Assembly: GCF_036365525.1 (NCBI RefSeq)
Contig: NC_090393.1
Span: 54,576,488 to 54,640,487 of the forward strand
Reading direction: 5' to 3'
Source: Heterodontus francisci
Lineage: Eukaryota
Length of the DNA: 64,000 nucleotides
The stretch's first letter is position 1, and each line of letters begins with the position of its first letter. The notes under the pieces were generated by a model. The model was not told the origin of the DNA and did no database searches. It was given only the letters and a program-made list of their open reading frames with translations. Both the position numbers and the translations under genes were made by a program. Shown here piece by piece: positions 1,273-46,438 of the stretch.

Positions 1273-2156
1273 GGTCAAGTGCAAGGGGACACTGAAATAG
1301 AAGTTCTCTCCCAGAGGCAGGCTTGCTGACCTTTTATAAGAGGATGCTACCCATCTCTCTGTACCAGTCATCACTATGTGACAAGGCCTTCTGTCAACAC
1401 AGGCATGCATGAGGTGCTCACCTTCACACACCATCCGTATATTTGATTCCTCATCTTTCCATTGCCAACTGGTACTCAAAAATGAATACATGGGTCATTA
1501 TCCATTGCATCACAAAACCTTTAACTCTAATAGCATATTAAAGGTTTCTGCATTGAACAAATAATTATCAACCATTGAAACACCAAGTGTCAGTCCATGC
1601 ATTTATGTGCTCACTCATGGTACTTCTACGGGATGTTCTCCCTGCACCTGAAGTTGATGTGGGCCAGCCTGCTGCCTTTCTTGCTCCAGTGCATGAGATG
1701 GCCATGACTTGTGTCCTCTGGGTGCCTGAGCCCTACTGGAACCCAGAACATTCAGGGCCACCTGTATCCGTGCAGGGGCCGCCTCAATTATCAGATGAGC
1801 ATGCAGCATTGATATCTCTGTCCAAGGGGCCGACGGTCAGCCTTCAGTAATCGAAGCCCCCAATGCCTTCAGCCTGTCCCTCCTTAACCCTTTCAGGCCC
1901 CACATGCACTACTGTGGTTGCCTGCAGTGTGTCACATCCTGGCAATGGGGAGATGCGTGGCTGGCCCATCTTGAACACCCATCACTCCATACATCTCATG
2001 GATGAGGCCATACTATGGAGGTTTGAGTGCACCCCTTGCTTTCACACAGTGCTATGATCTATAGGTTTATTTCTTGAGAGTCACTACTTTGTCAATGGAG
2101 GACACCATGCATGCACATGCTAGAGAAATGGCACCACTCATTAATTGGATGGGCTC

Positions 2157-3453
2157 CTCCCATGCTTTGATGCTCCCTGGCATTACAGTGTGCTTCTCCT
2201 GCAAGCACAGACGTACACAGTATCCATTCCTGTCTCGTGGCCCAACTCTGCTGGTCACTCTGAGTCACTGTAAATGTGCAGTACCATGTCACTGGGATGG
2301 CATTATGACACAGCCATTCAGCCATCTAAATGCAGCATTCACCCATCACTGACCATGTCATTCGGTTGCATGTGAATTGGGTGCCTCAATGTGAATGTTG
2401 GTGCTTGGTGTTGCCTCATGCATGGGTCTACCACCTGGTCTTAGATTTCGTAGGCACTTTTTAATTCATGCTGGGCTTCTATGCATGGGAGTGCACTACC
2501 TCTGGAAACTTTGACAGATGTTTACACATTTCACACTGCTGTTGAAGGATTTACCACCTTGCTGATGACACTCGAGGCTTGCCATCTGAATGGATCTGAG
2601 CATGGCTGGGCCTCGCCTCATTGCTCTGAGAGCAAGTGGCGCTGCTGTCACTGCCTCTGTTACCTCCTCCTGTGCATCTGTGCAGTGCCTACCAGATTGT
2701 GTGACCTGTTCTACATGCGCAACAAAGCCCACTGGCATAAGTGTATCTGCACTGGTGGAGAGTGTGCTGGAATGAACTGACGCTGTGTGCGAGATGTAAT
2801 AGATCGTCTGAACTTTCCAGTGTACAATGAGCCCTTGTCTTTTCCTCATCTGCTGCTGTACCTGCTGTAGAGACGTGATTTAAGTGAAACAGCTGCTCCT
2901 TCAATCAACCTCTGGTGCCTCCCCTTGATCAGGAGCTTCCATGAGTGTTAAAGGCCCACGCAGGTACCACAGCTCACACATGATTGAGGAAATGATGGAT
3001 GCAACCGTCACTTTACTTACTCTCCATTGCTTCCATACCCATGCTCTATGACAGGCTGCCCTGCCACAACCCTTCTGACGTCCATGGCCTCCTCTTCCAT
3101 CGGCGCCACCATGGTGATGGATGACACTCCACCTCCCATGCATTGATGCTCCCTGGCATTATAGTGTGCTTCTCCTGCAAGCACAGACATACACAGTATC
3201 CATTCCTGTCTCATGGCCCAACTCTGCTTGTCACTCTGTCACTGTAAATGTGCCATACCATGACACTGGGATGGTATTATGACACAGCCATTCAGCCATC
3301 TAAATGCAGCATTCACCCATCACTGACCATGTCATTTGGTTGCGTGTGAATTGGGTGCTTCAATTTGAATGTTGGTGCCTGGTGTTGCCTCATGCATGAG
3401 CCTACCACCTGGCCTTAGATTTCATGGGCACCTTTTAATTCATGCTGGGCTTC
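2157..3453. repeat. ~320-bp direct duplication (2157-2479 and 3133-3453) inside the Harbinger relic
   Basis: Both copies run CTCCCATGC..TGATGCTCCCTGGCATTA..GTGTGCTTCTCCTGCAAGCACAGAC to TTAATTCATGCTGGGCTTC, offset ~976 bp. Confidence 0.9.
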
Positions 3454-3924
3454 CAGTTTGCCATTCCTAATGCCAGTCACCTTTCCAGACCTCACCAAGT
3501 CATTAAATATCTTCCAGCACTGAATCCATACTCTTGCAAGCACCCCTAAACTAATGACTAGCTCTTCCATATCCAGCCATGTTTTCTCTGTTGGCTTGCT
3601 GCATGCAGTAGAACCCCTAGGGAGGGATTACTGAACCTTGGAGGGACTCTTCCTCATGATACAGCCATTCCTCTGCAGTCTCTGTTGATCTAAACCCCTT
3701 CCTTTGCAGCCTTTGTGTCTGTGGCCTGTCTGAATATGCCTTTAAAAATGGTGCCTAACAGCGAGCTGCCCGCACTATAACCTAATTGGCTGGCTTCCTG
3801 TGCCTGTTGGCCCTTAATTGGCTTTTCACGGTAAAATCGTTGAGGAAGTCCCGCCCATTCATGCCACCAACCTAAATATCCCTCCAATGTCGGATCATCT
3901 ACTCCATCTGCATAATTCAGCCCA

Positions 3925-4365
3925 TGTAGTGCTTTTCACAACCACAGGACGTACCAAAGCACTTTACAGCCAATGAAGTACTTATGAAATGTAGTTACTG
4001 TTGCAATGTAGGAAATATAACAGCCAATTTGCTCACAACAAACTCCCACAAACAACAATGTGATAATGAGCTGATAATCTATTTTTATGATGTTGATTGA
4101 TAAATAAGGCCAGGACAATGGGAATAACTGCCCTGCTCTTCTTCAATATAGTGGCATGGGATTTTCACATCCATCTGAGAGGGAAGATTAGGCCTCAGTT
4201 TAACGTTTCATCCGGAAGAGGACACTTCTCACAGTGCAGCACTCTCTTGGTACTGCACTGATGTATAAGCCTAGCTTGTTGTGCTCAAGTCCTGGCGTCC
4301 GGGAACTTGAATCCATTACCTTCTGACTCTGGCCACTGTGCTACCAACTGAGCCATGGTTGACAC
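3925..4365 (-). mobile_element. tRNA-derived SINE, Deu-domain-like
   Basis: The minus strand begins with TGGCTCAGTTGGTAGCA (A-box-like), then a degenerate B box and a GACTTGAGCAC...CAGTGCAGTAC...GAGTGCTGCACTG body. The family assignment is from recall. Confidence 0.65.
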
Positions 4366-5020
4366 ATAAGAGTAGAAAGAGTCGATAGAGAGAAAGAGAC
4401 TGTTTCCACTGGCAGGATGTTGGGTAGAACAGCTAACACGGATTTAGGTTAATTGGCTAAAGAACGAAAGGAGGGGAGAATAAGTGGTTTATTTTACGCA
4501 TCGAGTTGTTATGCTCTGGAATGAACTATCTGAAAGGGTGGTGGAAGTAGATACATTAATAGCTATTCAAAGGGGGATCATATATACATTTGAAGAGTAA
4601 GCAGATACAAAATAGGCCGAATGACCTCGTTCTTTGCTGTATGGTTTTATGATTCTATGAAATGATAAACATTAATGTAGAAAGGAAATTGCATAACATT
4701 GGAAAAAAAAGATCTCTTCTAGGTACGTTATTAAATTTACATTACAATATATATAGTGCGTTTCTATTTCCTTTAATGAATTGTTATCTATTCCTTTCTC
4801 CATAGGAGAAATAAGACAGTGTTCTCAAGCTTTTTTATTTCCTACTGTTGGCCCCTGGCATTATACAATTGACACTAATGGGCTTTCGTTGCATTAAGTT
4901 TCTCATGCGTTTGTAAATTGACACTGAAACGGTAATATATTTGATGAAAGTAAAGCAATCATTCCCATTTTTTACTTTCAAGGAAGAATCAATGTCCTTT
5001 CATTTGTTTGTACTTTTCAG

Positions 5021-7724: not shown

Positions 7725-8690
7725 TTTGTTATAACTTTAACAAATTTTCTTTTAAAAATAAATTCCATAATCAGATATTACTTGTTTGATTTTACAAAAA
7801 CAATTTAAATTGTAACGAAAGACGTGCAGTTTGTCCACCGGAATCTGTTGGCTGTATCGTGCCGTTCACAATGAAAAGTTCAAATCTTCAGTTCAATGTT
7901 ACAAATAGCGCGGTGGAATAAATGACTCGACCGTTGACTCAGGTGCAATTATTCTTCTCTGCCCAATATCCCTCTACCAATTCATAGCAACTTTCTAAGA
8001 TTGGTTAACTAGCTATATTCTGCATATTGTATGTAAAGTCAATGGAAACAGTCAGAATAGTATGATTACAGACACGATGGATGACTGGAGTTTAAAATTT
8101 CGTGTAAGAAATCTAACAGTATAAACAGTAGATTAAAAACAGAAGTGTTTGAATTTTGTCCACGTGGGGAAGGAGCTGACCTATGTGACCGTGCTCTTAT
8201 GACAATTCAAAGCAAGTGTTGTAAGCTCTTCTAAATCATCTAGTTACATAAATTCAGGGTGAACTCTATGACCGCCTTCCTGTTGGATTTTCCCGACCTA
8301 GCGCGGTAATTTCTGGCATTGCACCATTTTTAAAAGATACGATGACTTTAATCATTGGTCAATACTCGTTATGTTGAAGCAAATGCTACCAGCCTAAATT
8401 CAAACTGTCATAGCTGCAAATTTATGGAAGCACTCGACTTAGACCAGCTCAGATAACAGTCGCGCTTCACATTAATCACAAAATATTCCTTTAGTACATA
8501 ATGCTGTTTGTTCGGACTGATTTGGGAACACATAAATACATTGCTAAAATAGGAACACTAGTTGTTAAGGTCATTAAGACTGCAAACAGAGAACTGGCGT
8601 TCATTTCCAGAGGAATGGAACACAAAACATTTTTAAAAAATGTATATAGATCGTAGGTTATACCTTACTTGGCGGACTGCGGGTAGGAGG

Positions 8691-8789
8691 TGGCGTAGTG
8701 GTATGGGTAGGCGGTGGCATTGTGGTATTATGACTAGACTAATAACCCGGTGACCCAGGATATTTCTCTGGGGACATGGGTTCGAATCC
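8691..8789 (+). promoter_or_regulatory. RNA polymerase III type-2 internal promoter (A box duplicated, B box)
   Basis: TGGCGTAGTGG and TGGCATTGTGG lie in a 24-nt tandem duplication (8681-8704 and 8705-8728). A consensus B box GGTTCGAATCC is at 8779-8789. Confidence 0.7.
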
Positions 8790-9822
8790 CACCACAGCAG
8801 AAGGTGGAATTTGAATTTGCTGAATAAATCTGGAATTAAAAAGCTAGTCTAATGATGGCCATGAAACCATTGTCGATTGTTGTAAAAAAACCCATCTGGT
8901 TCACTAATGCCCGTCAGGGAAGGAAATCTGCTGTCCTCACCTGGTCTGGCCTACATGTGACTCCAGACCCACAGCAATGTGGTTAACTCTTACATGCCCT
9001 TTGTAATAGCCCAGCAAGGCACTCAGTTGTACCTAACCGCTACGAAGTCAATAAAAAGGAATGAAACTGGATGAACCACCCGGCAACGGAAATGACAATG
9101 GCAAAGCCAGCCCCGTCGATCCTGCAAAGTCCTCCATACGAATATCTGGGGGCTTGTGCCAAAGTTGGCAGAGCTGTCCCACAGACTAGTCAAGCAACAG
9201 CCTGACATCGTCATACTCACAGAATCATACCTTACAGACAATGTCCCAGACAGTACCATCCGGGTATGTCCTGCCCCACCGGCAGGACAGACCCAGCAGA
9301 GGTGGTGGCACAGTGGTATACAGTAGGGAGGGAGTTGCCCTGGGAGTCCACAACAGCGACTCCGGACCCCATGAAGTCTCATGGCATCAGGTCAAGCATG
9401 GGCAAGGTAACGTCCTACTGATTACCACCTACCACCCTCCCTCAGCTGATGAGTCAGTACTCATATATTTGGGCCGTTTAAAATAACTTGCCTTTCATTG
9501 CAGCAGCTTATTTGGGAGCAGAGAGTGCGAGCGAGTGATCAGCTGGGAAGGTCAGTTTCAAAGTAAACTTAATTTCCTTTTGTTTTCGGCGGTGACCAGG
9601 GGGCTGCTGGGTAAGTAAAACCCTATATATTTGGGCCGTTTCTGAACCTGAGACTCTACACGGGTAGTGTCTCCCACCCGCCCTCCTCCTCTAACCAAAA
9701 GAAAAGGACTCGGTGGTGTGTAGATAAGGTAAGGCTTTTTCTATTTCTCTTTTTTTTATCGTGTGATTGGTAAAAACTTTTAGTTCCTTTTTCATTTAAC
9801 TAAGTTAAGCTTAAGATTAAAA

Positions 9823-10770
9823 ATGGTAGGAGACCTCAGACCCGTGTCATGCTCCTCTTGCTCAATGTGGGAGCTCAGGGACACGGCTGATGTCCCTGAC
9901 TCCTTCATGTGCAGGAAGTGTGTCCAGCTGCAGCTCTTGTTAGACCGCATGACGGCTCTGGAGCTGCGGATGGACTCACTTTGGAGCATGCGCGATGCTG
10001 AGGAGGTCGTGGATAGCACGTTTAGCGAATTGGTCACACCGCAGATTAGGATTGCTGAGGGAGAAAGGGAATGGGTGACCAAAAAGCAGAGAAAGAGCAG
10101 GAAGGCAGCGCAGGAGTCCCTTGCAGTCATCTCCCTCCAAAACAAGTATACCATTTTGGATACTGTTGAGGGAGATGGCTCACCAGGGGAAGGCAGCAGT
10201 AGCCAGGTTCATGGCACCGTGGCTGGCTCTGCTGTTCGGAAGGGCGGGAAAAAGAGTGGAAGGGCTATAGTCATCGGGGATTCGATTGTAAGGGGAGTAG
10301 ATAGGCGGTTCTGTGGTCGAAAACGAGACTCCCGAATGGTATGTTGCCTCCCAGGTGCACGGGTCAGGGATGTCTCAGATTGGCTGCAGAACATTCTGAA
10401 GGGGGAGGGTGAACAGCCAGTTGTCATTGTGCACATAGGCACCAATGATATAGGTAAAAAACGGGATGAGGTCCTACAAGCATAATTTAGGGAGTTAGGA
10501 GCCAAGTTAAAAAGTAGGACCTCAGAGGTAGTAATCTCAGGATTGCTACCAGTGCCACGTGATAGTCAGAGTCGAAATGAAAGAATAGTCAGGATGAATG
10601 CGTGGCTTGAGAGATGGTGCAGGAAGGAGGGGTTCAGATTTTTGGGACATTGGGACCAGTTCTGGGGGAGGTGGGACTATTACAAATTGGATGGTCTACA
10701 CCTGGGTCGGACTGGAACCAATGCCCTTGGGGGTGCTTTTGCTAACGCTGTTGGGGAGGGTTTAAACTAA
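9823..10770 (+). pseudogene. CR1 ORF1 (Cys-rich finger/leucine zipper plus SGNH esterase), one premature stop
   Basis: CSSC..CRKC, IVIGDSIVRG, CLPGARV, VHIGTND and DGLHL. An in-frame TAA at 10483-10485 separates two same-frame ORFs. Confidence 0.9.
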
Positions 10771-13726
10771 TGTGGCAGGGGGATGGGAACCAAATGAGGA
10801 GGTCAGTGGACAGCAAGGAGGTAGTAACAAAAGCCTGTAAGGAACTAGATAATGAAGTCAGCGTGACTAAGGGGAAGAGTAGGCAGGGAGCAGATGATGA
10901 ACGCAAAGGGAGTGGTGGTCTGAGGTGCATTTGTTTTAATGCAAGAAGTGTAGTAGGTAAGGCAGATGAACTTAGGGCTTGGATTAGTACCTGGGAGTAT
11001 GATGTTATTGCTATTACTGAGACTTGGTTGAGGGAAGGGCATGATTGGCAACTGAATATCCCAGGATATCGATGCTTCAGGCGGGATAGAGAGGGAGGTA
11101 AAAGGGGTGGAGGAGTTGCATTACTGGTCAAAGAGGATATCACAGCTGTGCTGAAGGAGGGCACTATGGAGGACTCAAGCAGTGAGGCAATATGGGCAGA
11201 ACTCAGAAATAGGAAGGGTGCGGTAACAATGTTGGGGCTGTACTACAGGCCTCCCAACAGTGAGCGTGAGATAGAGGTACAAATATGTAAACAGATTATG
11301 GAAAGATGTAGGAGCAACAGGGTGGTGGTGATAGGAGATTTTAATTTTCCCAACATTGACTGGGATTCACTTAGTGTTAGAGGTCTCGATGGAGCAGAAT
11401 TTGTAAGGAGCATCCAGGAGGGTTTTCTAGAGCAGTATGTAAATAGTCCAACTCGGGAAGGGGCCATACTGGACCTGGTGTTGGGGAATGAGCCCGGCCA
11501 GGTGGTTGAAGTTTCAGTAGGGGACTACTTTGGGAATAGTGATCACAATTCCGTAAGCTTTAAAATACTCATGGACAAAGACGAGAGTGGTCCTAAAGGA
11601 AGAGTGCTAAATTGGGGGAAGGCCAACTATACCAAAATTCGGCAGGAGCTGGGGAATGTAGATTGGGAGCAGCTGTTTGAAGGGAAATCCACATGTGATA
11701 TGTGGGAGGCTTTTAAAGAGAGGTTGATTAGCGTGCAGGAGAGACATGTTCCTGTAAAAATGAGGGATAGAAATGGCAAGATTAGGGAACCATGGATGAC
11801 AGGTGAAATTGTGAGACTAGCTAAGAGGAAAAAGGAAGCATACATAAGGTCTAGGTGGCTGAAGAAAGACGAAGCTTTGAAAGAATATCGGGAATGTAGG
11901 ACCAATCTGAAACGAGGAATTAAGAGGGCTAAAAGGGGTCATGAAATATCTTTAGCAAACAGGGTTAAGGAAAATCCCAAAGCCTTTTATTCATATATAA
12001 GGAGCAAGAGGGTAACTGGAGAAAGGATTGGCCCACTCAAGGACAAAGGAGGAAAGTTATACGTGGAGTCAGAGAAAATGGGTGAGATTCTAAACGAGTA
12101 CTTTGCATCGGTATTCACCGAGGAGAGGGACATGAAGGATGTTGAGGTTAGGAACAGATGTTTGATTACTCTCGGTCAAGTCGGCATAAGGAGGGAGGAA
12201 GTGTTGGGTATTCTAAAAGGCATTAAGGTGGACAAGTCCCCAGGTCCGGATGGGATCTATCCCAGGTTACTGAGGGAAGCGAGAGAGGAAATAGCTGGGG
12301 CCTTAACAGATATCTTTGCAGCATCCTTAAACACGGGTGAGGTCCCGGAGGACTGGAGAATTGCTAATGTTGTCCCCTTGTTTAAGAAGGGTAGCAGGGA
12401 TAATCCAGGTAATTATAGACCGGTGAGCCTGACGTCAGTGGTAGGGAAGCTGCTGGAGAGGTTACTGAGGGATAGGATCTATTCCCATTTGGAAGAAAAT
12501 GGGCTTATCAGTGATAGGCAACATGGTTTTGTGCAGGGAAGGTCATGTCTTACCAACTTAATAGAATTCTTTGAGGAAGTGACAAAATTGATTGATGAGG
12601 GAAGGGCTGTAGATGTCATATACATGGACTTCAGTAAGGCGTTTGATAAGGTTCCCCATGGTAGGCTGATGGAGAAAGTGAAGGCGCATGGTGTCCAAGG
12701 TGTACTAGCTAGATGGAGAAAGAGCTGGCTGGGCAACAGGAGACAGAGAGTAGCAGCGGAAGGGAGTTTCTCAAAATGGAGACGTGTGACCAGTGGTGTT
12801 CCACAGGGATCTGTGCTGGGACCACTGTTGTTTGTGATATACATAAATGATTTGGAGGAAAGAATAGGTGGTCTGATTAGCAAGTTTGCAGACGACACTA
12901 AGATTGGTGGAGTAGCAGATAGTGAAGGGGACTATCAGAGAATACAGCAGAATATAGATAGATGGAGAGTTGGGCAGAGAAATGGCAGATGGAGTTCAAT
13001 CAGGGCAAATGCGAGGTGATGCATTTTGGAAGATCCAATTCAAGAGTGAACTATACAGTAAATGGAAAAGTCCTGGGGAAAATTGATGTGCAGAGAGATT
13101 TGGGTGTTCAGGTCCATTGTTCCCTGAAGGTGGCAATGCAAGTCAATAGAGTGGTCAAGAAGGCATACGGCATGCTTTCCTGCATCGGACGGGGTATTGA
13201 GTACAAGAGTTGGCAGGTCATGTTACAGTTGTATAGGACTTTGGTTCGGCCACATTTGGAATACTGCGTGCAGTTCTGGTCGCCACATTACCAAAAGGAT
13301 GTAGATGCTTTGGAGAGGGTGCAGAGGAGGTTCACCAGGATGTTGCCTGGTATGGAGGGCGCTAGCTATGAAGAGAGGTTGAGTAGATTAGGATTATTTT
13401 CATTAGAAAGACGGAGGTTGAGGGGGGACCTGATTGAGGTGTACAAAATCATGAGAGGTATAGACAGGGTGGATCGCAAGAAGCTTTTTCCCAGAGTGGG
13501 GGATTCAATTACTGGGGGCCACGAGTTCAAAGTGAAAGGGGAAAAGTTTAGGGGGGATATGCATGGAAAGTTCTTTATGCAGAGGGTGGTGGGTGCCTGG
13601 AACGCGTTGCCTGCGGAGGTGGTAGACGGGGGCACGATAGCGTCTTTTAAGATGTATCTAGACAGATACATGAATGGGCAGGAAGTAAAGAGATACAGAC
13701 CCTTAGAAAATAGGCGTCATGGTTAG
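10770..13726 (+). pseudogene. CR1 ORF2 (AP endonuclease plus reverse transcriptase), one frameshift near 12960
   Basis: ORFs 10770-13019 and 12962-13726 contain ITETWL, GDFN, SDH, QHGF, DFSKAFD, GVPQGSVLGP, FADD and [13 protein letters not shown]. Confidence 0.93.
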
Positions 13727-16700
13727 ATAGAGGATCTGGATCGGTGCAGGCCTGGAGGGCCGAAGGGCCTGTTCCTGTGCTGTAAATTTCTTTGTTCTTT
13801 GTTCTTTGTTCTTTGTTCTACTCCTCCATGTTGAACACCACTTGGAGGAAGCACTGAGGGTGGCAAGTGCACAAAATGTACTCTGGGTGGCGGTCTTCAA
13901 TGTCCATCACCAAGAGTGGCTCGGTAGCACCACTACTGGCCGAGTCCTAAAGGACATAGCTGCTAGACTTGGTCTGCGGCAGGTGGTGGGGGAACCAACA
14001 CGAGGGAAAAACATACTTGACCTCGTCCTCACCAATCTGCCTGCCGCAGATGCTTCTGTCCATGACAGTATTGGTAGGAGTGACCACCGCACAGTCATTG
14101 TGGAGACGAAGTCCCACCTTCACATTGAGGATACCGTCCATCGTGTTGTGTGGCACTATCACCGTGCTAAATGGAATAGATTTCGAACAAATCTAGCAAT
14201 GCAAAACTGGGCATCCATGAGGCGCTATGGGCCATCAGCAGAAGCAGAATTGTACTCAACCACAATCTGTAACCTCATGGCCCGGCATATCCCCCACTCT
14301 ACCGTTACCATCAAGCCAGGAGACCAATCCTGGTTCAATGAAGAGTGCAGGAGGGCATACCTCAAAATGAGGTGTCAACTTGGTGAAGCTACAACCCAGG
14401 ACTACTTGCACGCCAAACTTCATAAGCAGCATGCAATAGACAGAGCTAAGCCATCCCATAACCAACAGATCAGATCTAAGTTCTGCAGTCCTGCCACATC
14501 CAGCCATGAATGGTGGTGGACAATTGAACAACTAACTGGAGGAGGTGGCTCCACAAATATCCCCATCCTCAATGATGGGGGAGCCCAGCATATCAGTGTG
14601 AAAGATAAGGCTGAAGCATTTGCAACAATCTTCAGCCAGAAGTGCTGAGTTGATGATCCTTCTCGGCCTCCTCCTGAAGTCCCCAGCATCACAGATGCCA
14701 GACTTCAGTCAATTCGATTCACTCCACGTGATATCAAGAAAAGACTGAAGGCACTGGATACTGCAAAAGCTATGGGCCCTGACAATATTCCGGCAATAGT
14801 ACTGAAGACCTGTGCTCCAGAACTTGCCGCGCCCCTAGCCAAGCTGTTCCAGTACAGCTACAACACTGGCATCTACCCTGCAATGTGGAAAATTGCCCAG
14901 GTATGTCCTGTGCACAAAAAGCAGGACAAGTCCAACCCGGCCAATTACCGCCCCATCAGCCTACTCTCAATCATCAGTAAAGTGATGGAAGTTGTCATCA
15001 ACAGTGTCATCAAGTGGCACTTGCTTTGCAATAACCTGCTCAGTGACGCTCAGTTTGGGTTCCGCCAGGGCCACTCAGCTCCTGACCTCATTACAGCCTT
15101 GGTTCAAACATGGAGAAAAGAGCTGAACTCAAGAGGTGAGGTGAGAGTGACTGCCCTTGACATCAAGGCAGCATTTGAGCGAGTATGGCATCAAGGAGCC
15201 CTAGCAAAACTGAGGTCAATGGGAATCAGGGGAAAACACTCCGCTGGCTGGAGTCATACCTAGCACAAAGGAAGATGGCTGTGGTTGTTGACATCACTGC
15301 AGGAGTTCCTCAGGGTAATGTCGTGGGCCCAACCATCTTCAGCTGCTTCATCAATGACCTTCCCTCAATCATAAGGTCAGAAGTGGGGATGTTCACTGAT
15401 GATGGCACAATGTTCAGCACCATTCGTGACTCCTCAGATACTGAAGCTGTCCATGTAGAAATGCAGCAAAACTTGGACAATATCCAGGCTTGGGCTGATA
15501 AGTGGCAAGTAACATTTGTGCCACACAAGTGCCAGGCAATGACCATCTCCAACAAGAGAGAATCTAACCATCTCCCCTTGACATTCAATTGCATTACCAT
15601 CGCTGAATCCCCCACTATCAACATCCTAGGGGATACCATTGACCAGAAACTGAACTGGAGTAGCCATATAAATATCATGGATAAAAAGCAGGTCAGAGGC
15701 CAGGAATCCTGCGGCGAGTAACTACCTCCTGACTCCCCAAAGTCTGTCCACCATCTACAAGGCATAAGTCAGGAGTGTGATGGAATATTCTCCACTTGTC
15801 AGGATGGGTGCAGCTCCAACAACACTCAAGAAGCTTGACACCATCCAGGACAAAGCAGCCCGCTTGATTGGCACCCCATCTACAAACATTCACTCCCTTC
15901 ACCACCGACGCAGAGTGGCAGTAGTGTGTACCATCTACAAGATGCACTGCAGCAATGCACCAAGGCTCCTTAGACAGCACCTTCCAAACCCTCGACCTCT
16001 ACCAACTAGAAGGACAAGGGCAGCAAATACATGGGAACACCACCACCTGCAAGTTCCCCTCCATGTCACACACCATCCTGACTTGGAACTATATGGCCGT
16101 TCCTTCGCTGTCACTGGGTCAAAATCCTGGAACTCCCTTCCTAACATCACTGTGGGTATACCTACCCCAAATGGACTGCAGTGGTTCAAGAAGGCAGCTC
16201 ACCACCACCTTCTCAAGGGCAATTAGGGATGGGCAATAAATGCTGGCCTGGCCAGTGATGCCTACATCCCATGAATGAATGAAAAAGTTCTGGTCCCCAT
16301 GCTACAAAATGGGAATGGAAACACTGGAAGAAGTGTAGAAAGGATTCAAAATGCGGTTACTAGAATTTGGAGGTTGCAACTATCATAAAAATGAAATGAC
16401 TGGATTCCTTTCTTTGGAGAGATGAAGAATTGACATAATGGAGGTCTTCAGATTTATAAAGTGGTTCGCAAGGATGGACATGGAGAAATTGCTTCCACTT
16501 GTGTGTGAACCCAGAACAAATATGATAGCCACGAACAGATCAATTAAAGAACTTATATGAAAATATTAATTGGTAATTGTTTGGGAGATAGGAGACAGAG
16601 AATAGTGATTACGGGGCTGTTTGATTGGCCAGATTGACATGCCGTGCACCCTGGGGATTTGCATTGGGGCCTCACCTTTTCACCATTGGTATTAATGACT

Positions 16701-23034: not shown

Positions 23035-25958
23035 GGAAACTGGACGGACCACCTGGCATTGATCTAGGCATCGGAAATGACAATGGCAAACCCAGTCCTG
23101 TCGACCCTGCAAAGTCCACATTACTAACATCTGGGAGCTTGTGCCAAAGTGGGAGAGCTGTCCCACAGACTAGTCAAGCAACAGCCTGACATAGTCATAC
23201 TCACGGAATCATACCTTACAGACAATGTCCCAGACACCAGCATCACAATCCCCAGGTATGTCCTGTCCCACCGGCAGGACAAACCCAGCAGAGGTGGTGG
23301 CACAGTGGTATACAGTTGGGATGGAGTTGCCCTGGGAGTCCTCAACATCGACTCTGGACCCCATGAAGTCTCATGGCAACAGGTCAAACATGGGCAAGGA
23401 AACCTCCTGCTGATTACCACCTACCACCCTCCTTCAGCTGATGAATCAGTACTCCTCCATGTTGAACACCACTTGGAGGAAGCACAGAGGGTGGCAAAGG
23501 TGCTGAATGTACTCTAGGTGTACTCTAGACCTCAATGTCTAACACCAAGACGGCTCGGTAGCACCACGACTGACCAAGCTGGCCGAGTCCTAAAGGACAC
23601 AGCTGTGAGACTGGGTCTGCGGCAGGTGATGAGGGAACAACAAGAGGGAAAAACATGACCTCGTCCTCACCAATCTGCTTGCCGCAGATGCATCTGTCCA
23701 TGACAGTATTGGTAGGAGTGACCACCACACTGTCCTTGTGGAGATGAAGTCCCATCTTCACATTGAGGATACCCTCCATTGTGTTGTGTGGCACTACCAC
23801 CTTGCTGAATGGGATAGATTTCGAACAGATCTAGCAATGCAAAACTGGACGGCTATGACGCGCTGTGGGCCATCAGTAGCAGCAGAATTGTACTCAACCA
23901 CAATCTGTAACCTCATGGCCCGGCATATCCCCCACTCTACCATTACCGTCAAGCCAGGAGACCAACCCTGGTTCAATGAAGAGAGTAGGAGGGCATGCCA
24001 GGAGCAGCACCAGACAGACCTCAAAATGAGGTGTCAACCTGGTGAAACTACAACCCAGGACTACTTGTGTGCCAAACTGTGTAAGCAGCATGCGATAGAC
24101 AGAGCTAGGCAATCCCATAACCAACGGATCAGATCTAAGTTCTGCAATCCTGCCACATCCAGTCGTGAATGGTGGTGGACAATTAAACAACTAACTGGAG
24201 GAGGTGGCTCCACAAATATCCCCATCCTCAATGATGGGGGAGCCCAGCACATCAATGCAAAGGATAAGGCTGAAGCATTTGCAACAATCTTCAGCCAGAA
24301 GTGCCGAGTTGATGATCCATCTTGGCCCCCTCCTGACGTCCCCAGCATCACAGATGCCAGACTTCAGCCAATTCAGTTCACTCCACGTGATATCAAGAAA
24401 CGAATGAAGGCACTGGATACTGCAAAGGCTATGGGCCCTGACAATGTTCCGGCAATAATACTGATGACCTGTGCTCCAGAACTTGCCACACCCCTAGCCA
24501 AGCTGTTCCAGTACAGCTGCAACACTGGTATGCACCCGGCGATATGGAAAATTGCTCAGGTATGTCCTGTACACACAAAGCAGGACAAGTCAAGCCTGGC
24601 CAATTACCGCCCCATCAGTCTACACTCAATCATCAGTAAAGTGATGGAAGGTGTCATCAACAGTGCTATCAAGCAGCACTTGCTTAGCAATAACCTGCTC
24701 AGTGACGCTCAGTTTGGGTTCCGCCAGGGCTACTCAGCTCCTGACCGCATTACGGCCTTGGTTCAAACATGGACAAAAGAGCTGAACTCAAGAGGTGAGG
24801 TGAGAATGACTGCCCTTGACATCAAAGCAGCATTTGACCAATTATGGCATCAAGGAGCCCTAGCAAAACTGAAGTCAATGGGAATCAGTGGGGAAACTCT
24901 TCGCTGGTTGGAGTCATATCAAGTGCAAAGGAAGATGGTTGTGGTTGTTGGAGGTCAATCATCGCAGCTCCAGGACATCACTGCAGGAGATCCTCAGGGT
25001 AGTGTCCTAGGCCCAACCATCTTCAGCTGCTTCATCAATGACCTTCCTTCAATTATAATGGGGATGTTCGCTGATGATTGCACAATGTTCAGCATCATTT
25101 GCGACTCTTCAGTTACTAAAGCAGTCCGTGTCGAAATTCAGCACGACCTGGACAATATTCAGGCTTGAGATGATAAGTGGCAAGTAACATTCATGCCACA
25201 CAAGTGCCAGGCAATGACTATCTCCAACAAGAGAGAATCTAACCATCTCCCCTTGACATTCAATTGCATTGCCATCGCTGAATCCCCCACTATCAACATC
25301 CTGGGGATTACCATTGACCAGAAACTGAACTGCAGTAGCCATATAAATACTGTGACTATAAGAGCATGTCAAAGGCTAGGACTCCTGCGGTGAGTAACTC
25401 ACCTCCTGACTCCCCAAAGCCAGTCCACCATCTACAAGGCACAAGTCAGGAGTATGATGGAATACTCTCCACTTGCCTCGATGGGTGCAGCTCCAACAAC
25501 AGCCAACACCATCCAGGACAAAGCAGCCTGCTTGATTGGCACCCCATCCACAAACATTCACTCCGTCCACCACTGACGCACAGTGGCAGCAGTGTGTACC
25601 ATCTACATGATGCACTGCAGCAATGCACCAAGGCTCCTTAGACAGCACCTTCCAAACCCGCGACCTCTACCAACTAGAAGGGCAAGGGCAGCAAATGCAT
25701 GGGAACACCACCACCTGCAAGTTCCCCTCCAAGTCACACACCATCCTGACTTGGAACTATATCACCATTCCTTCACTGTCGCTGGGTCAAAATCCTGGAA
25801 CTCCCTTCCTAACAGCACTGTGGGTATACCTACCTCACATGGACTGCAGTGGTTCAAGAAGGCAGCTCACCACCACCTTCTCAAGGGCAATTAGGGATGA
25901 GCAATAAATTCTGGCCTGGCCAACGATGCCCACATCCCATAAATGAATAAAAAAAACA
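23035..25958 (+). mobile_element. CR1-clade LINE family B copy, lacking the tRNA-like head
   Basis: ORFs 23149-23517 and 23738-25168 are highly similar to the 8681-16286 copy. It has the same 3' tail plus an A-run. Confidence 0.92.
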
Positions 25959-27555
25959 TAGCTACATAAAGTGCTAAAAGAAGCAACACATTTAATTAAG
26001 ATCGTAAATACTTCATTCAAAACACTGGGATTCATTTCTCGGAGAATAGGGAGCTAAAATTAAATTATGCCGAACCTACCTATGTTTGACCACACTCGGA
26101 ATACTGTGCACATTAATATGTATGGTTTGGCAATTATGTAAAGTAAAAGATAAAGAGAAGGTTTAAAAAGGTTTTTCTCTGATTGGTGGGCTGTGGAAAA
26201 TTGCATTTTCCTGGGATCTGTATTGGAATCTCAGCTTTTTACATGTAAGGAAATGAGTTGCATGTAGGCATATAGTGTTCGACATCAAAGTTTCCTGATA
26301 CCGTTAAGTTAAGAGATGTGGTAACTTGTGTTGTAAGGAGCAGGAAACTACATAGGTAGATCAAGTAAATTGAGAAACCATTGGCAAACGGAATTCAATG
26401 CCAGGATGTGTGATCTGAGAAAGACAAATCAGAATATTTCCTTAATACTGAAAGATTAGGAGCTATGGAGGAAGCAAAGGGATTTAGGTGATCATGTGCA
26501 CAAATCATTAATAGTTAGTGCATAAGTACAATAAGTAACCCAAAAGGTAAATGGGATGTTAACCTTTTTCCTAAGGGCAATGGAATTTAAAAGTGAGGAA
26601 GTAATGCTTCAGTTATACACAGTCATTGGCAGATTCTATCTGGAGTATTACATCCCGAAGCTCAGTAAATATATGTTGGCCTTGAAAGGGATACAAGGCG
26701 GATTCGTCGGATTGTTCTAGGCCTTTAAAGCATTCAGTTATAAGGTAAGGTTGCATAAATGTGGCTTGTATTCCCTGAAATTTAGAAGATTGACGGGTAA
26801 TATAATCTAATTATTTAAATGATTCAAAGATTCAATAGGATAAATATAGAGAAACTACTTCTCTCATAGGGAATCCAAAACTAAAGGATATAACCTTAAG
26901 ATTACAGCCGGTTAATTTAGGAGTGATGTCAGGAAGCATTTTTGACAAAAAGTTGAGTGATAATATGGACCTTATTCTATCAAAAGGCTGTGGATGCTGA
27001 GTCCATTGAAACTTTTATGACAGAGATGGATAGGTTTTTTTAGGTAAGGATACCATGGGATATGGAACAAAAGTAGGCAAATGGAGTTGAGGTACAGAAC
27101 ACCTTAGATCTAATGAATGCTGGAACAGACTGAACTGGCTAAATGATCTACTCTGTTGAGATGCTTCTATTGTCATGGAGCCATAGAGTTATTATGGCAT
27201 AGAAGGTGGCTATTCCGTATATCGAGTCAATGCTGGCTCTTTGTAGAGCAATCCAGTCGGTCCCATTCCCCTGCTCTATCCTCTTAGCCCTGCAAGTTTA
27301 TTTCCCTCATGTGCCCATCCAATTTCCTTTTGAAATGATTGATTGTTCCTGCTTCAAACTCACTTGCAGGCAGCAGGTTCCCAGTCATTGCCACTCGCTA
27401 GGTAAAAAAGTTCATCTTCACATCCCTGAATGTCTCACAACAAAAACTTAAATTGTGTCCCTTGTCCTTGTGCCATCAGCTAATGGGAACAACTTTTCTT
27501 TTTTTAAACCTATCTGAACCTGTACGCCTCTATCAGATTGTCCCTCAACCGTCCT

Positions 27556-29419
27556 TTTTTTAAAATTCATTCATGGGATGTAGGCGTTGCTAGCCAGGCC
27601 AGCATTTATTGCCCATCCCTAATTGCCCTTGAGAAGGTGGTGGTGAGCTGCCTTCTTCAACCGCTGCAGTCCATGTGAAATAGGTACACCCACAGTGCTG
27701 TTAGGAAGGGAGTTCCATGATTTTGACCCAGCGACAGTGAAGGAACGGCGATATAGTTCCAAGTCAGGATGGTGTGTGACTTGGAGGGGAACTTGCAGGT
27801 GGTGGTGTTCCATGTATTTGCTGCCCTTGTCCTTCTAGTTGGTAGAGGTCGCAGGTTTGGAAGGTGCTGTCTAAGACGCCTTGGTGCATTGCTGCAGTGC
27901 ATCTTGTAGATGGTACACACTGCTGCCACTGTGCGTCAGTGGTGGAGGGAGTGAATGTTTGTTGATGGGGTGCCAATCAAGCAGGCTGCTTTGTCCTGGA
28001 TGGTGTCAAGCTTCTTGAGTGTTGTTGGAGCTGCACCCATCCAGGCAAGTGGAGAGTATTCCATCACACTCCTGACTTGTGCCTTGTAGATGGTGGACAG
28101 GATTTGGTGAGCCAAGAGGTGAGTTACTCGCCTCAGGATTCCTAGCCTTTGACCTGCTCTTGTAGCCACGGTATTTATATGGCTACTCCAGTTCAGTTTC
28201 TGGTCAATGGTAGCCCCTAGGATGTTGATAGTGGGGGATTCAGCGATGGTAATGCGGTTGAATGTCAAGGGGAGATGGTTAGATTCTGTCTTGTTGGAGA
28301 TGGTCATTGCCTGGCACTTGTGTGGCGCGAATGTTACTTGCCACTTTTCATGCCAAGCCTGGATATTGTCCATGTCTTGCTGCATTTTGACACGGACTGC
28401 TTCAGTATCTGAGGAGTCACGAATGCTGCTGAACATTGTGCAATCATCAGCGAACGTCCCCACTTCTGACCTTATGATTGAAGGAAGGTCATTGATGAAG
28501 CAGCTGAAGATGGTTGGGCCTAGGACACTACCCTGAGGAACTCCTGCAGTGATGTCCTGGAGCTCAGATGATTGACCTCCAACAACCACAACCATCTTCC
28601 TTTGTGTGAGGTATGACTCCAGCCAGCAGAGAGTTTTCCCACTGATTCCCATTGACCTCAGTTTTGCTAGGGCTCCTTGATGCCATACTCGGTCAAATGC
28701 TGCCTTGATGTCAAGGGCAGTCACTCTCACCTCACCTCTGGAGTTCAGCTCTTTTGTCCATGTTTGAATCAAGGCTGTAATGAGGTCAGGAGCTGAGTGG
28801 CCCTGGCGGAACCCAAACTGAGTGTCACTGAGCAGGTTATTGCTAAGCAAGTGCCGCTTGATGGCACTGTTGATGACACCTTCCATCACTTTACTGATGA
28901 TTGAGAGTAGGCTGATGGGGCGGTAGTTGGCCAGGTTCGACTTGTCCTGCTTTTTGTGTATAGGACATACCTAGGCAATTTTCCACAGTGCAGGGTAGAT
29001 GCCAGTGTTGTAGCTGTACTGGAACAGCTTGGCTAGGGGCGTGGCAAGTTCTGGAGCACAGGTCTTCAGTACTATTGCCGAAATATTGTCAGAGCCCATA
29101 GCATTTGCAGTATCTAGTGCTTTCAGTCATTTCTTGATATCATGCGGAGTGAATCGAATTGGCTGAAGTCTGGCATCTGTGCTGCTGGGGACGTCAGGAG
29201 GATGCCGAGATGGATCATCAACTCGGCACTTCTGGCTGAAGATTGTTGCAAATGCTTCAGCCTTATCTTTCGCACTGATGTGCTGGGCTCCCCCATCATT
29301 GAGGATGGGGATATTTGTGGAGCCACCTCCTCCAGTTAGTTGTTTAATTGTCCACCAACCTTCATGGCTGGATGTGGCAGGACTGCGGATCTTAGATCTG
29401 CTCCGTTGGTTATGGGATC
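27556..29419 (-). mobile_element. CR1-clade LINE family B copy, 5'-truncated, inserted in an older minus-strand CR1
   Basis: RT ORF 27936-28889 (GVPQGSVLGP, FADD). The tail is at ~27556-27630. Confidence 0.92.
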
Positions 29420-29814
29420 GCTCCAAGGAGAACAACCCCAGCTCCTCTAACCTCACCTTGCAGTGAAAATCCTTCATCTCTGGAACCATTCTGGTAAATC
29501 TCCTCTACACCCTATTGAGGATCTTCACATTCTTCCTAAGGTGTGGTGCCAGAACTGAGTGCAGTACGCTAGTTGTGGTCTAACCAGAGCTTTATAAAGG
29601 TTCCGCATAACTTTGTTTGCTTTTTCACTCAATACTTCTGTGAAGCCCAAGATCACAGGTGCTTTGCTAACTACTCTCTCAGTATATCCTGACACCTTCA
29701 ATGATCTGTGCACATGAACCCCCAGGTTCCTCTGTCCCTGCACATTCAGAACTGTGCCATTAAATATATATTGCCTCTCCCTATCCCTTCTGCCAAAGTG
29801 AAATTCTACAGACA

Positions 29815-33837: not shown

Positions 33838-35446
33838 TTCACTCGATTCACTCCGCGTGATATCAAGAAACGACTGAAGGCACTGGATACTGCAAATGCT
33901 ATGGGCTCTGACAATATTTCGGCAATAGTACTGAAGACCTGTGCTCCAGAACTTGCCGCGCCCCTAGCCAAGCTGTTCCAGTACAGCTACAACACTGGCA
34001 TCTACCCTGCAATGTGGAAAATTGCCCAGGTATGTCCTGTACACAAAAAGCAGGACAAGTCCAACCCGGCCAATTACCGCCCCATCAGCCTACTCTCAAT
34101 CATCAGTAAAGTGATGGAAGGTGTCATCAACAGTGTCATCAAGTGGCACTTGCTTTGCAATAACCTGCTCAGTGATGCTCAGTTTGGGTTCCGCCAGGGC
34201 CACTCAGCTCCCGACCGCATTACAGCCTTGGTTCAAACATGGACAAAAGAGCTGAACTCAACAGGTGAAGTGAGAGTGACTGTCCTTGATATCAAGGCAG
34301 CATTTGACCGAGTATGGCATCAAGGAGCCCTAGCAAAACTGAGATCAATGGGAATCAGTGGGAAAACTCTCTGCTGGTTGGAGTCATACCTCACACAAAG
34401 GAAGATGGTTGTGGTTGTTGGAGGTCAATCATCTGAGCTCCAGGACATCACTGCAGGAGTTCCTCAGGGTAGTGTCCTAGGCCCAACCATCTTCAGCTGC
34501 TTCATCAATCAATATGATTCCTTCAATCATAAGGTCAGAAGTGGGGATGTTCGCTGATGATTGCACAATATTTAGCACCATTTGTGACTCCTCAGATACT
34601 GAAGCAGTCCTTGTAGAAATGCAGCAAGACCTGGACAATATCCAGGCTTGGGCTGATAAGTGGCAAGTAACATTCGTGCCACACAAGTGCCAGGCAATGA
34701 CCATCTCCAACAAAAGAGAATCTAACCATCTCCCCTTGATATTCAATGGCAATACCATCGCTGAATCCCCCACTATCAACATCCTAGGGGCTACCATTGA
34801 CAAACTGAACTGGAGTAGCCATATAAATACCGTGGCTACAAGAGCAGGTCAGAGGCTAGGAATCCTGCGGCGAGTAACTCAACTCCTGACTCCCCAAAGC
34901 CTGTCCAACAACTACAAGGCACAAGTCAGGAGTGTGATGGAATACTCTCCACTTGCCTGGATGGGTGCAGCTCCAACAACACTCAAGAAGCTCAACACCA
35001 TCCAGGACAAAGCAGCCTGCTTGATTGGCACCCCATCTACAAACATTCACTCCCTCCACCGCTGATGCAGAGTGGCAGTGGTGTGTACCATCTACATGAT
35101 GCACTGCAGCAATGCACCAAGGCTCCTTAGACAGCACCTTCCAAACCCACGACCTCTACCAACTAGAAGGGCAAGGGCAGCAAATACATGGAACACCACC
35201 ACCTGCAAGTTCCCCTCCAAGTCACACACCATCCTGACTTGGAACTATATCACCATTCCTTCACTGTCGCTGGGTCAAAATCCTAGAACTCCCATCCTAA
35301 CAGCACTGTGGGTATACCTAGCCCAAATGGACTGCAGCGGTTCAAGAAGGCAGCTCACCAGCACCTTCTCAAGGGAAATTATGGATGGGCAATAAATGCT
35401 GCCCTGGTCAGCGATGCCCACATCCCTGAATGAATAATAAAAAAAA
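33838..35446 (+). mobile_element. CR1-clade LINE family B copy, 5'-truncated
   Basis: ORFs 33901-34557 and 34514-35065, with a 3' tail ending TGAATGAATAATAAAAAAAA. Confidence 0.92.
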
Positions 35447-35880
35447 CAAAGTAATTCATGACAACGCTACTTCATCGGACACGTCATCAGGATGTGCCGC
35501 GGTGCGCACATGCGCAGACGGTCTCATGCCCCTTGCGCATGCGCTGCGGTCCGGCTGACCAGGACCGCTTTGCGCATGCACAGATGACATGGTACGCGCA
35601 TGCGCGCACAGTCTCCTCATCTCTGCGCATGCGCTGCGGTCCGACCTGCCAGGACCGTTGTGCGCATGTGTAGATGACGTCATTGCGTTATTTCGTCTTC
35701 CTCGCTGACGCGCCAATTTGGCCTCTGCGCATGCGTCAAAGCTTCGGCGCCACTTTTTGAAAGTGGAAGGAGGGGAGGTTTCTCGCATTTTATCTGAATT
35801 ATTTATTCGTTTTGGAGACTTGCTTCATTTTTAATTGACACAGGAGATTGTTCGAAGGTAAGTTGCTCTGCCTTTGTATG

Positions 35881-36820
35881 TTGCTCTGAAAACATTTCCA
35901 TTGTCTGGGCCACCGCATGTTCTCCAGTCCCTGTTGTGAGTTGCTCTGAAAACATTTCCATTGGCTGGGCCACTGCATGTGCTCCAGTCCCTGTTGTAAA
36001 TTGCTCTGAAAACATTTCCATTGTCTGGGCCACCGCATGTTCTCCAGTCCCTGTTGTAAATTGCTCTGAAAACATTTCCATTGTCTGGGCCACCGCATGC
36101 TCTCCAGTCCCTGTTGTGAGTTGCTCTGAAAACATTTCCATTGTCTGGGCCACCGCATGCTCTCCAGTCCCTGCTGTAAGTTGCTCTGAAAACATTTCCA
36201 TTGGCTGGGCCACTGCATGTGCTCCAGTCCCTGTTGTAAATTGCTCTGAAAACATTTCCATTGTCTGGGCCACCGCATGCTCTCCAGTCCCTGTTGTGAG
36301 TTGCTCTGAAAACATTTCCATTGTCTGGGCCACCGCATGTTCTCCAGTCCCTGTTGTGAGTTGCTCTGAAAACATTTCCATTGGCTGGGCCACTGCATGT
36401 GCTCCAGTCCCTGTTGTAAATTGCTCTGAAAACATTTCCATTGTCTGGGCCACCGCATGTTCTCCAGTCCCTGTTGTAAATTGCTCTGAAAACATTTCCA
36501 TTGTCTGGGCCACCGCATGCTCTCCAGTCCCTGTTGTGAGTTGCTCTGAAAACATTTCCATTGTCTGGGCCACCGCATGCTCTCCAGTCCCTGCTGTAAG
36601 TTGCTCTGAAAACATTTCCATTGGCTGGGCCACTGCATGTGCTCCAGTCCCTGTTGTAAATTGCTCTGAAAACATTTCCATTGTCTGGGCCACCGCATGC
36701 TCTCCAGTCCCTGTTGTGAGTTGCTCTGAAAACATTTCCATTGTCTGGGCCACCGCATGTTCTCCAGTCCCTGCTGTAAGTTGCTCTGAAAACATTTCCA
36801 TTGTCTGGGCCACCGCATGT
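35881..36820. repeat. 60-bp minisatellite, 15 full units plus 40 nt, with a 7-unit higher-order repeat
   Basis: Unit TTGCTCTGAAAACATTTCCATTGKCTGGGCCACYGCATGYKCTCCAGTCCCTGYTGTRAR. 35881-36300 is identical to 36301-36720. Confidence 0.98.
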
Positions 36821-44745: not shown

Positions 44746-46059
44746 TATTAGTTGCTTCTACTATTCCGCGTGTTATCATTTATGAATAAAAATCTGTCAG
44801 ATAAACAACTGCTTGTAAACCTCTCACCAGGAATTTCCTTGAGCTCCTCCCACTCCACAGAGGTAATTCCAGTGGATGTTCAGAAGTATTTTCTCATGTA
44901 AACTGTGGGATGAAATTAGTCTTGGATAGGGAATAGCGACCGGTTAGCTTTTTTGTTTGCAACTTGCTGAACCTGGCTGCCGATTCACTGGCCTGTTTTA
45001 CTCTATCATTAATGAAAAAATTCATCTGCTAGGTAAATTATGAAGGAATGAGTGGCAAATTGGCTGAGGCGGATTGGGAAAATACATTATAAGGTATGAC
45101 AGTCCATAGGCAATGGATGGTCTTTGAAGAATTATTACATAGTTTACAGCACTGATGCATTCCTTCAAGGCACAAAAACCCAAACATTCAGTCAACCATG
45201 GTTAACAAGGGAAGTTAAGGATTGTATAAGATTAAAAGAAAATGTCTATAAAGTTGCCAGAAATAGTAGTAAACCTGAAGATTGGGAGGATTTTAGAATA
45301 CAGCAAAAGAGGACCAAGAAACTGATAAAGAAAGGGAGAATAGAATATGAATGTAAACTAGCAAACAACATAAAAACCGAGTGTAAAAGCTTCTATAGGT
45401 ACAGAAAAAGGAAACGTTTGGCCAATACAAATGTGGGTCCATTACCGGCAGAGTCAGGAGAATTTATAATGGAGAATAGAGAAATGGCAGAGAAGCTAAA
45501 TGATTACTTTGTGTCTGTCTTCACTGAAGAAGATACAAGAAATCTCCAAGAATTAGAGATCCAAGGGACTAGTGAGAATGAGGAAATGAAGGAAATTAGT
45601 ATTAGTAAGAAAGTTATTTTGGAGAAATTAATGGCGCTGAAGGTTGATAAGTCCCTGGAACCTGATATTCTACATCCCAAATTGTTAAAAGAGGCAGCTA
45701 TGGAAATAATGGATGCATTGGTGAGTTTTTTGAGGATGTTACTGACAGAATTGATAAAAGGGAAGTCAATGGATATGGTATACATAGATTTTCAGAAGGC
45801 TTTTGATAAAGTCCCTGCAGGATTAGCAATAGTAAAGCACATGGGATATGTGGTAATATACTGGCATGGATTAAATATTGGTTAACAGGCAGAAAACAGA
45901 GAAGGAATAAATGGGTCATTCTCACCTTGGCAGGCTGTGACTAGTAGGGTGCCACAACGATCAGCACTTGGGCCCCAGTTTTTCACAATATATATCAATG
46001 ATTTGGATACGGAGACCAAATGTAATATTTTTAAGTTCACGGATGACACAAAACTAGGT

Positions 46060-46372
46060 TTTTAAAATTCATTTTGGGATGTGGGTGTCACTGGCTAGGC
46101 CAGCATTTATTGCTCATCCCTAGTTGCCCTTGAACTGAGTTGCTTAATAGGCCATTTCAGAAGGCATTTTTTATTTAGAGTCAACCACATAGCTGTCGCC
46201 CAGGTGGGTTTTTACAACAATCAACAATGGTTTCACACTCATCATTAGACTAGCTTTTAATTCCAAACTTATTAATTGAATTCAAATTTCACCATCCACT
46301 GTGAGCACATTGAGCATTAGCCTGGGCTCTAGATTACTAGTCTAGTGACATTACCACTACACCACCTCTCCC
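46060..46372 (-). mobile_element. SINE sharing both head/body and 3' tail with LINE family B
   Basis: The minus strand reads GGGAGAGGTGGTGTAGTGGTAATGTCACTAGACTAGTAATC...AAAAGCTAGTCTAATGATG...ACTCAGTT|CAAGGGCAACTAGGGATGAGCAATAAATGCTGGCC. Flanks are CTAGGT and CTATGT. Confidence 0.85.
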
Positions 46373-46438
46373 CTATGTGGGAATATGTGTTGTGAGTAAG
46401 ATGCGAAGAGGCTTCAAGGGGATTTGGACAGACTTAGT

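Follow-up and report, generated by a model that had tools for sequence, protein, structure and literature searches.

A tRNA-like head on a Zenon LINE of elasmobranchs: a candidate RNA polymerase III-transcribed retrotransposon and its SINE

LINEs are usually coding elements transcribed by RNA polymerase II (Pol II), and SINEs are non-coding elements that RNA polymerase III (Pol III) transcribes. The bipartite SINEs Bov-tA, CoeSINE4 and SINE2_Gav, derived from RTE and Vingi elements, combine sequence from the 5' end of a LINE with sequence from its 3' end (Kojima 2018, PMC5786205), as does the SINE described here. Their tRNA head was added after the deletion and only RTE and Vingi contribute to them, whereas in the shark case the head already sits on an autonomous LINE of the CR1 group. 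Persaeus SIDE, from a lepidopteran Zenon, is likewise a short internal-deletion derivative that joins 5' and 3' parts, with multiple origins inferred. The account of Persaeus in PMC6740152 states that it has no tRNA homology or Pol III promoter, whereas the shark parent LINE itself carries a Pol III-type promoter, so that its deletion derivative is formally a SINE.

SINEs of the T+ type (B2, Dip, Ves, Ere) also resemble the shark elements, in having AATAAA, a T-run and an A tail in that order at the 3' end, and their T-runs are shortened among copies; the portion of PMC11240701 that describes them presents them as short, non-coding and reported only from placental mammals, whereas T4 or more is found in only about a third of the shark Zenon copies. 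SacSINE1 (a DeuSINE) and HE1 (a V-SINE) are tRNA-headed shark SINEs with LINE tails, as here. SacSINE1 carries a Deu domain and an L2-type tail according to the relevant part of PMC5499810 and is set apart here by description only; HE1 partners HER1 (table in PMC3747384) and was compared by description, not by sequence. We rejected identity with DeuSINE/SacSINE1, as three short Deu motifs matched at most 6 of 9-12 and the body looked unlike the alignment in the supplement of PMC7245038 when compared by eye.

Zenon is defined by a single APE-RT ORF, the lack of ORF1 and a poly(A) tail, as set out in part of Stuart et al. 2026 (PMC13343379). The elasmobranch Zenon consensuses in the supplement of that study (CarCar, RhiTyp, ScyCan, SquAca and HypSab; main consensus 3.24-3.31 kb per species) belong to the same family as our element. 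The words tRNA and promoter occur nowhere in its main text and SINE occurs once, in the reference list; the head, the T-run depletion, the start-codon problem and the derived SINE are left undescribed there. Among the papers listed by searches of the literature outside subscription journals and Repbase, none deals with a Pol III-driven autonomous LINE or with the tRNA-like head found here.

The headed copy and the SINE in the window

The window, a stretch of 64,000 nucleotides of Heterodontus francisci (contig NC_090393.1, 54,576,488 to 54,640,487), contains at 8705-16286 a decayed copy of a 3.3-kb single-ORF CR1-Zenon LINE that is interrupted by a nested CR1 and occupies 8705-9462 and 13819-16286 on the family ruler. 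The preliminary description had put its start at 8681. Comparison of fetched copies showed that the family begins at the equivalent of 8705, and that 8681-8704 (+), 24 nt long, stems from a local tandem duplication of the head start, lies outside the family structure and has an intact A box TGGCGTAGTGG at 8691. The tRNA-like head (8705-8795, +) has an A box at 8715 that is mutated here, a B box GGTTCGAATCC at 8779 and a long extra arm. It is followed by the body common to the LINE and the SINE (8796-9028, +), which ends CACTCAGTT at 9028; this end had been placed correctly, but the size of about 300 bp given for the body did not hold, since head and body together make up about 320 nt. Within the body (8796-9028, +), the family carries an in-frame AUG-GCC-UAG-CAA, where the window copy reads ATA-GCC-CAG. 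A linker and an Arg-rich N-terminal extension follow in the ORF frame without an in-frame AUG (9029-9137, +), and the 5' part of the APE endonuclease coding region (9138-9462, +) opens with TNIW at 9138; it is frameshifted here, and PF03372 was matched on a sister copy. Thus all features that had been named in a LINE with an A box/B box head running via GTA and a linker into the APE frame are present.

The nested element (9463-13818, +) is a canonical CR1 LINE of 4.36 kb, near full length, with TACTC duplicated, a weakly esterase-like ORF1 (E 2.6e-4), an APE-RT ORF2 and a microsatellite tail. A fragment 96.5% identical to it lies at 56861-58550 (-). The 3' tail of the Zenon LINE is found at 16214, as had been noted, and the LINE is split by this CR1. 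Its remaining APE-RT ORF (13819-16226, +) is decayed and ends in the stop TAG at 16224-16226, overlapping the 3' tail common to the LINE and the SINE (16214-16286, +), which consists of AATAAA, a predicted stem-loop, ATGAAT repeats and an A tail. This is the only headed copy in the window, as had been noted: the three larger other copies are all 5'-truncated, the second Zenon copy (23036-25960, +) at family position 356 and without a head, and those at 27555-29422 (-) and 33843-35445 (+) as judged by matches to the family ruler. Elsewhere in the window, 35874-36820 is a tandem array of 60-bp period with long open frames on several strands.

The SINE at 46059-46373 (-) is an old-type copy in which head and body lead straight into the final ~75 nt of the LINE, with the junction between 46133 and 46132. 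As first described, it follows the LINE head and body from 46373 to ACTCAGTT (46133) and then continues to 46059 with the LINE tail from CAAGGG (16214). Its B box is missing, as had also been seen, and about 70 nt of the body are deleted too. The coincidence of the divergence point with the SINE body/tail boundary is true, but it is so by definition and hence is no evidence.

The family across the genome and across species

A 23-nt pattern over the head-ORF junction gave 4,581 exact matches in the 6.0-Gb genome and its reversed control gave 0, showing that the junction is not unique to this locus. The SINE junction gave 4,376 matches (reversed control 0), an older junction type 3,351 (control 1) and the LINE 3' end 45,280 (control 0). 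We fetched the best 40 junction matches and set aside the window's own; all 39 run from body into ORF, 33 reaching the head start and 6 being cut inside the head, and full copies among them measure 3.25-3.30 kb. On contig 1 we followed the first 20 exact matches to the junction: 19 lead on into the ORF and 15 extend back to the head start, with three of them resembling duplicates of a single locus. Identical breakpoints in three copies at contig 1 7.08-7.12 Mb and in another pair mark probable segmental duplicates, so that copy counts are slightly inflated.

We found no alternative 5' UTR among 30 copies selected by a leader pattern. In 24 of them the sequence reaches back into the head or the body, and the remaining 6 are 5'-truncated with unrelated flanks, as judged by eye. 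Target-site duplications enclosing head and tail, which had been expected, were not found as long repeats and are mostly 0-4 nt. In 4 of the 24 full copies (the other 20 are uninformative) the two flanks meet again, within 0-2 nt, in a repeat that predates the insertion, which shows that the element was inserted from head to tail as one unit. Older-type junctions continue into the ORF in 19 of 30 sampled. The older subfamily (24 of 40 fetched loci usable) is 94.4% identical to the young majority, at 96.8% in the body core, 85% in the head and 94.8% in the ORF, where the differences comprise 90 synonymous and 53 non-synonymous codons.

The majority sequence, built from 24 full copies out of 59 loci, has a single 975-codon frame. 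PF03372/PF14529 and PF00078 matches on family copies place APE and RT in one ORF; there is no ORF1, the longest uORF being 46 codons in the young majority and 74 in the old, and a poly(A) tail is present. We place the element in Zenon as its probable clade, since its initial 400 nt are nearly identical, by eye, to the published Zenon rows. The closest database proteins are LINE proteins, mostly unnamed, at 33-44% identity, and one shark gene model carries a fragment 88% identical to the element's protein. The same head, body and junction open the Zenon consensuses of white shark, whale shark, catshark, dogfish (three consensus rows) and stingray, each row of the PMC13343379 supplement being compared by eye over 400 nt; in the 400 nt displayed of the hagfish and coelacanth rows the head was not visible by eye. 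Taken together, these data leave us highly confident that this structure exists, that it extends through the family and that it is ancient within elasmobranchs.

The head has its A box TGGCGTAGTGG at family position 11 and its B box GGTTCGAATCC at position 75. Both box patterns still match in 24 of 54 decayed heads and both are retained in the older subfamily, and the 5' ends of fetched full copies fall sharply 10 nt ahead of the A box. The Rfam tRNA model scored the head of a sister copy at 19.1 bits (E 0.35), below its cut-off, and ARAGORN called no tRNA on the head. A genome search for the parent tRNA gave only Thr and Lys genes, without a clear match to the head; many of the top tRNA matches are tRNA-Thr(TGT) copies that are nearly identical to one another and lie on different contigs, and they probably form a tRNA family carried by a repeat. 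Among metagenome relatives of the LINE, a pattern search found no A+B box pair in 60 ORF loci. ARAGORN found no tRNA heads in 40 such loci, a negative that is uninformative because ARAGORN also misses the shark head. At some time before sharks and rays split, the LINE must have acquired its head from a tRNA or from a tRNA-SINE.

T-runs, the 3' end and the transcript

The majority of the 24 copies contains no T4 run on its sense strand, that is, no internal terminator, versus 13 A4, 13 C4 and 8 G4 runs, and single copies average 0.4 T4 versus 14.5 A4 runs. We compared the ORF with permutations of synonymous codons in which amino acids and codon usage were held fixed. TTT runs numbered 4 against 12.9 expected, and no shuffle out of 5,000 went that low. 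Four-T-in-five motifs numbered 1 where 8.9 were expected (P=0.001), and A runs were normal. The depletion of T4+ terminators, for which the preliminary description had proposed a scan, thus holds for TTT and for four T in five, but T4 runs alone (0 vs 2.1 expected) are not significant at P=0.08. The older subfamily ORF is similar in TTT (4 vs 12.7 expected), and the old majority has 0 T4 runs when ungapped and 1 on the young ruler (P=0.29); since the two majorities are related, the second adds no independent test. TTT depletion was absent from five other LINE ORFs of the window. The 60 metagenome LINE ORFs of at least 400 codons (from 80 loci, mostly distant relatives) had T4 runs in 58 cases and a lowest TTT ratio of 0.55, versus 0.31 here. 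One metagenome contig bears at 1311-4685 a GC-rich LINE ORF of 1,125 codons without T4, and with none upstream either; its TTT depletion is mild (6 vs 11, P=0.025), and by pattern it has no A/B boxes.

At the 3' end, AATAAA lies ~45 nt ahead of the tail. A T-run of T4 or longer comes before the A run in 20 of 57 LINE ends, where run lengths show a gap at T3, and in 8 of 41 SINE ends; thus about a third of LINE copies end in AATAAA, T4+ and poly(A), and most are without a terminal T-run. LINE copies ending in T4+ are not older than the others (94.9% vs 93.7% identity, P=0.024), and a tree of 3' ends by T-run class gave no resolution. The T-runs of T+ SINEs can lengthen with age, according to part of PMC11240701, and the terminal T-runs could be partly mutational here. 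Across fetched genome loci, A runs of at least 6 have T4+ before them in 68 of 1,090 cases and after them in only 3 of 1,090, so that TTTTAAAA is common genome-wide.

The tRNA-type promoter and the avoidance of T-runs point to a LINE that is likely read by Pol III. Judging from these sequence features, we consider it moderately probable that an autonomous Zenon LINE is transcribed by Pol III from its tRNA-like head. TFIIIC would bind the A and B boxes, and Pol III would start ~10 nt upstream of the A box and cross 3.3 kb, a passage made possible by the purging of terminators, stopping at a T-run at or past the 3' end. AAUAAA-dependent tailing of the RNA would follow, as in T+ SINEs. Pol III transcripts need no ORF1p, as stated in a section of PMC2666806, which fits an element without ORF1, though all Zenon lack it. 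Assembled contigs from four sequencing runs contain the junction region and SINE joints, carry no information on start, strand or polymerase, and were given no weight as support.

The strongest alternative is that the LINE RNA is made by Pol II or by host read-through, that the head is a relic or a structural part, serving as a Pol III promoter only in SINEs, and that T-runs were lost under another pressure, e.g. the avoidance of splicing or of U-rich decay signals. PMC10886601 treats LINEs as Pol II transcripts and ascribes poor processivity to Pol III, an uncapped RNA poses a translation problem, and the T4 depletion alone is not significant. Furthermore, TT dinucleotides are also depleted, to 0.71 of expectation, so that another anti-U pressure is possible. 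However, both boxes persist across subfamilies and species with a sharp start 10 nt before the A box, and the depletion is T-specific, sense-strand-specific and missing from the window's other LINEs. The 5' 350 nt, with two AATAAA and ten AUGs, would also make a poor Pol II leader. We regard the Pol II alternative as rather unlikely.

Translation is the least certain step of the proposed Pol III route. No AUG directly opens the ORF, and the first in-frame Met is residue 285, past the APE domain. The AUG at family position 299 reads Met-Ala-stop and then an open frame, and by the Kozak rule its context is strong. UAG-CAA would provide a leaky stop context. The distance from this body AUG to the ORF is in frame in 112 of 121 copies, with two length classes 3 nt apart, whereas a control non-coding spacing splits 23/16/12 across the frames. 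The first base of the stop is G, C or A in 31 of the 121 LINE copies, compared with at most 3 at six neighbouring T positions, and among the first 100 genome matches, counted by eye, 21 carry a sense codon at the stop position. This base is also variable in SINEs (8 of 54) and sits in a predicted hairpin loop. Judged by eye, a one-base shift puts the supplement's whale shark and dogfish consensuses out of frame with the body AUG, and that of dogfish has a second stop. An RNA without a normal cap would most likely be translated from the body AUG through the leaky UAG-CAA, but because two of the five published consensuses are out of frame and the variable base lies in a predicted loop, we propose this step only tentatively, as something short of an even prospect. 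An out-of-frame AUG at family position 354 was rejected as the start, as it is missing from the old subfamily. Folding of the body as an IRES-like structure gave z -0.23 alone and -3.2 with the head.

Origin of the SINE and implications

The SINE is non-coding and ~395 nt long. Its tail corresponds to LINE 3219-end in all 30 main-junction SINEs sampled and its head ends at 319 in 27 of the 30, so that it equals LINE 1-319 plus 3219-end. Other short forms have breakpoint pairs at about 321/3216, 319/3222, 320/3199, 333/3152, 357/3138, 353/3185, 338/3182, 340/3181, 331/3194 and 330/3230, and several of them retain LINE linker and coding sequence. Two loci carry older short forms whose tail is variant (AAGAAGAAGGCCC or similar), which hints at a Zenon-derived SINE subfamily of still greater age. 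We built a tree of 71 heads (45 short forms and 26 of 54 LINE heads; bootstrap not converged), in which 15 young SINE heads cluster with 25 LINE heads (97/91), separate from old SINEs, and well-supported branches force at least 4 changes of SINE/LINE label. On average the SINE heads are the older ones, with a median identity of 87.6% versus 95.4% in the sampled LINEs. Old AATCC-type heads lead into the ORF in 0 of 30 cases, and 24 end in the tail.

Deletion forms that connect the two ends of the LINE number at least ten. The SINE belongs to them and is therefore most likely derived from the headed LINE, an origin that we hold with good confidence. The preliminary description had offered two options, internal deletion from a headed LINE or capture of a SINE head by the LINE; the first explains the SINE best, and the two are not exclusive in deep time. 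The main breakpoint is common to old and young SINEs, which requires repeated identical deletion or exchange of heads, and repeated deletion with some head exchange fits the SINE data best. A two-step microhomology route to the main junction found no support, its intermediate having only 2 exact genome matches; nor did long-range pairing of body end and tail, at -73 vs -67 +/- 6 kcal/mol for shuffled sequences. Under repeated deletion, the reverse transcriptase would jump from the tail to the body end, yielding ready-made SINEs again and again, since promoter and tail would both be retained.

The opposite order, in which an established tRNA-SINE with a Zenon tail came first, passed its head and body to the LINE and gave rise, with occasional head exchange and not by deletion, to the SINEs of today, would explain the single main breakpoint of old and young SINEs. 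The oldest sampled heads are indeed SINEs (down to 69% identity), lying outside in a tree drawn with midpoint rooting, and module exchange is well described in PMC5786205 and PMC5499810, in the parts that treat it. However, the headed LINE is found in sharks and a ray and in old subfamilies of the source genome, LINE linker or coding sequence is retained, with varied breakpoints, in many short forms, and young SINE heads nest among LINE heads with the forced label changes. Zenon is also known to give deletion derivatives repeatedly, as the text on Persaeus in PMC6740152 has it. Taken together, these data make a SINE-first origin improbable. Finally, the reading that a truncated SINE and a LINE came to lie side by side by chance at the window locus, which the one headed copy in the window would allow, is refuted by the 4,581 exact junctions against a control of 0 and by the recurrence of the junction in five other species, and its probability is close to nil.

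Returning to derivation from a Pol III-read headed LINE, the full account would be that of a self-sufficient SINE: a coding retrotransposon made by Pol III, terminator-free since before the split of sharks and rays, translated uncapped through a leaky stop, and giving rise to SINEs by deletion. We would give this combination even chances. If it is true, an abundant shark repeat whose promoter is a Pol III one and whose sense strand has been purged breaks the division between LINEs and SINEs, a long Pol III RNA can be translated, and there is a one-step route to the birth of a SINE. The origin of conserved SINE bodies has been called unknown (Kojima 2018, PMC5786205); if the account holds, the conserved SINE body would be a functional LINE leader, which would give SINE bodies a testable function.
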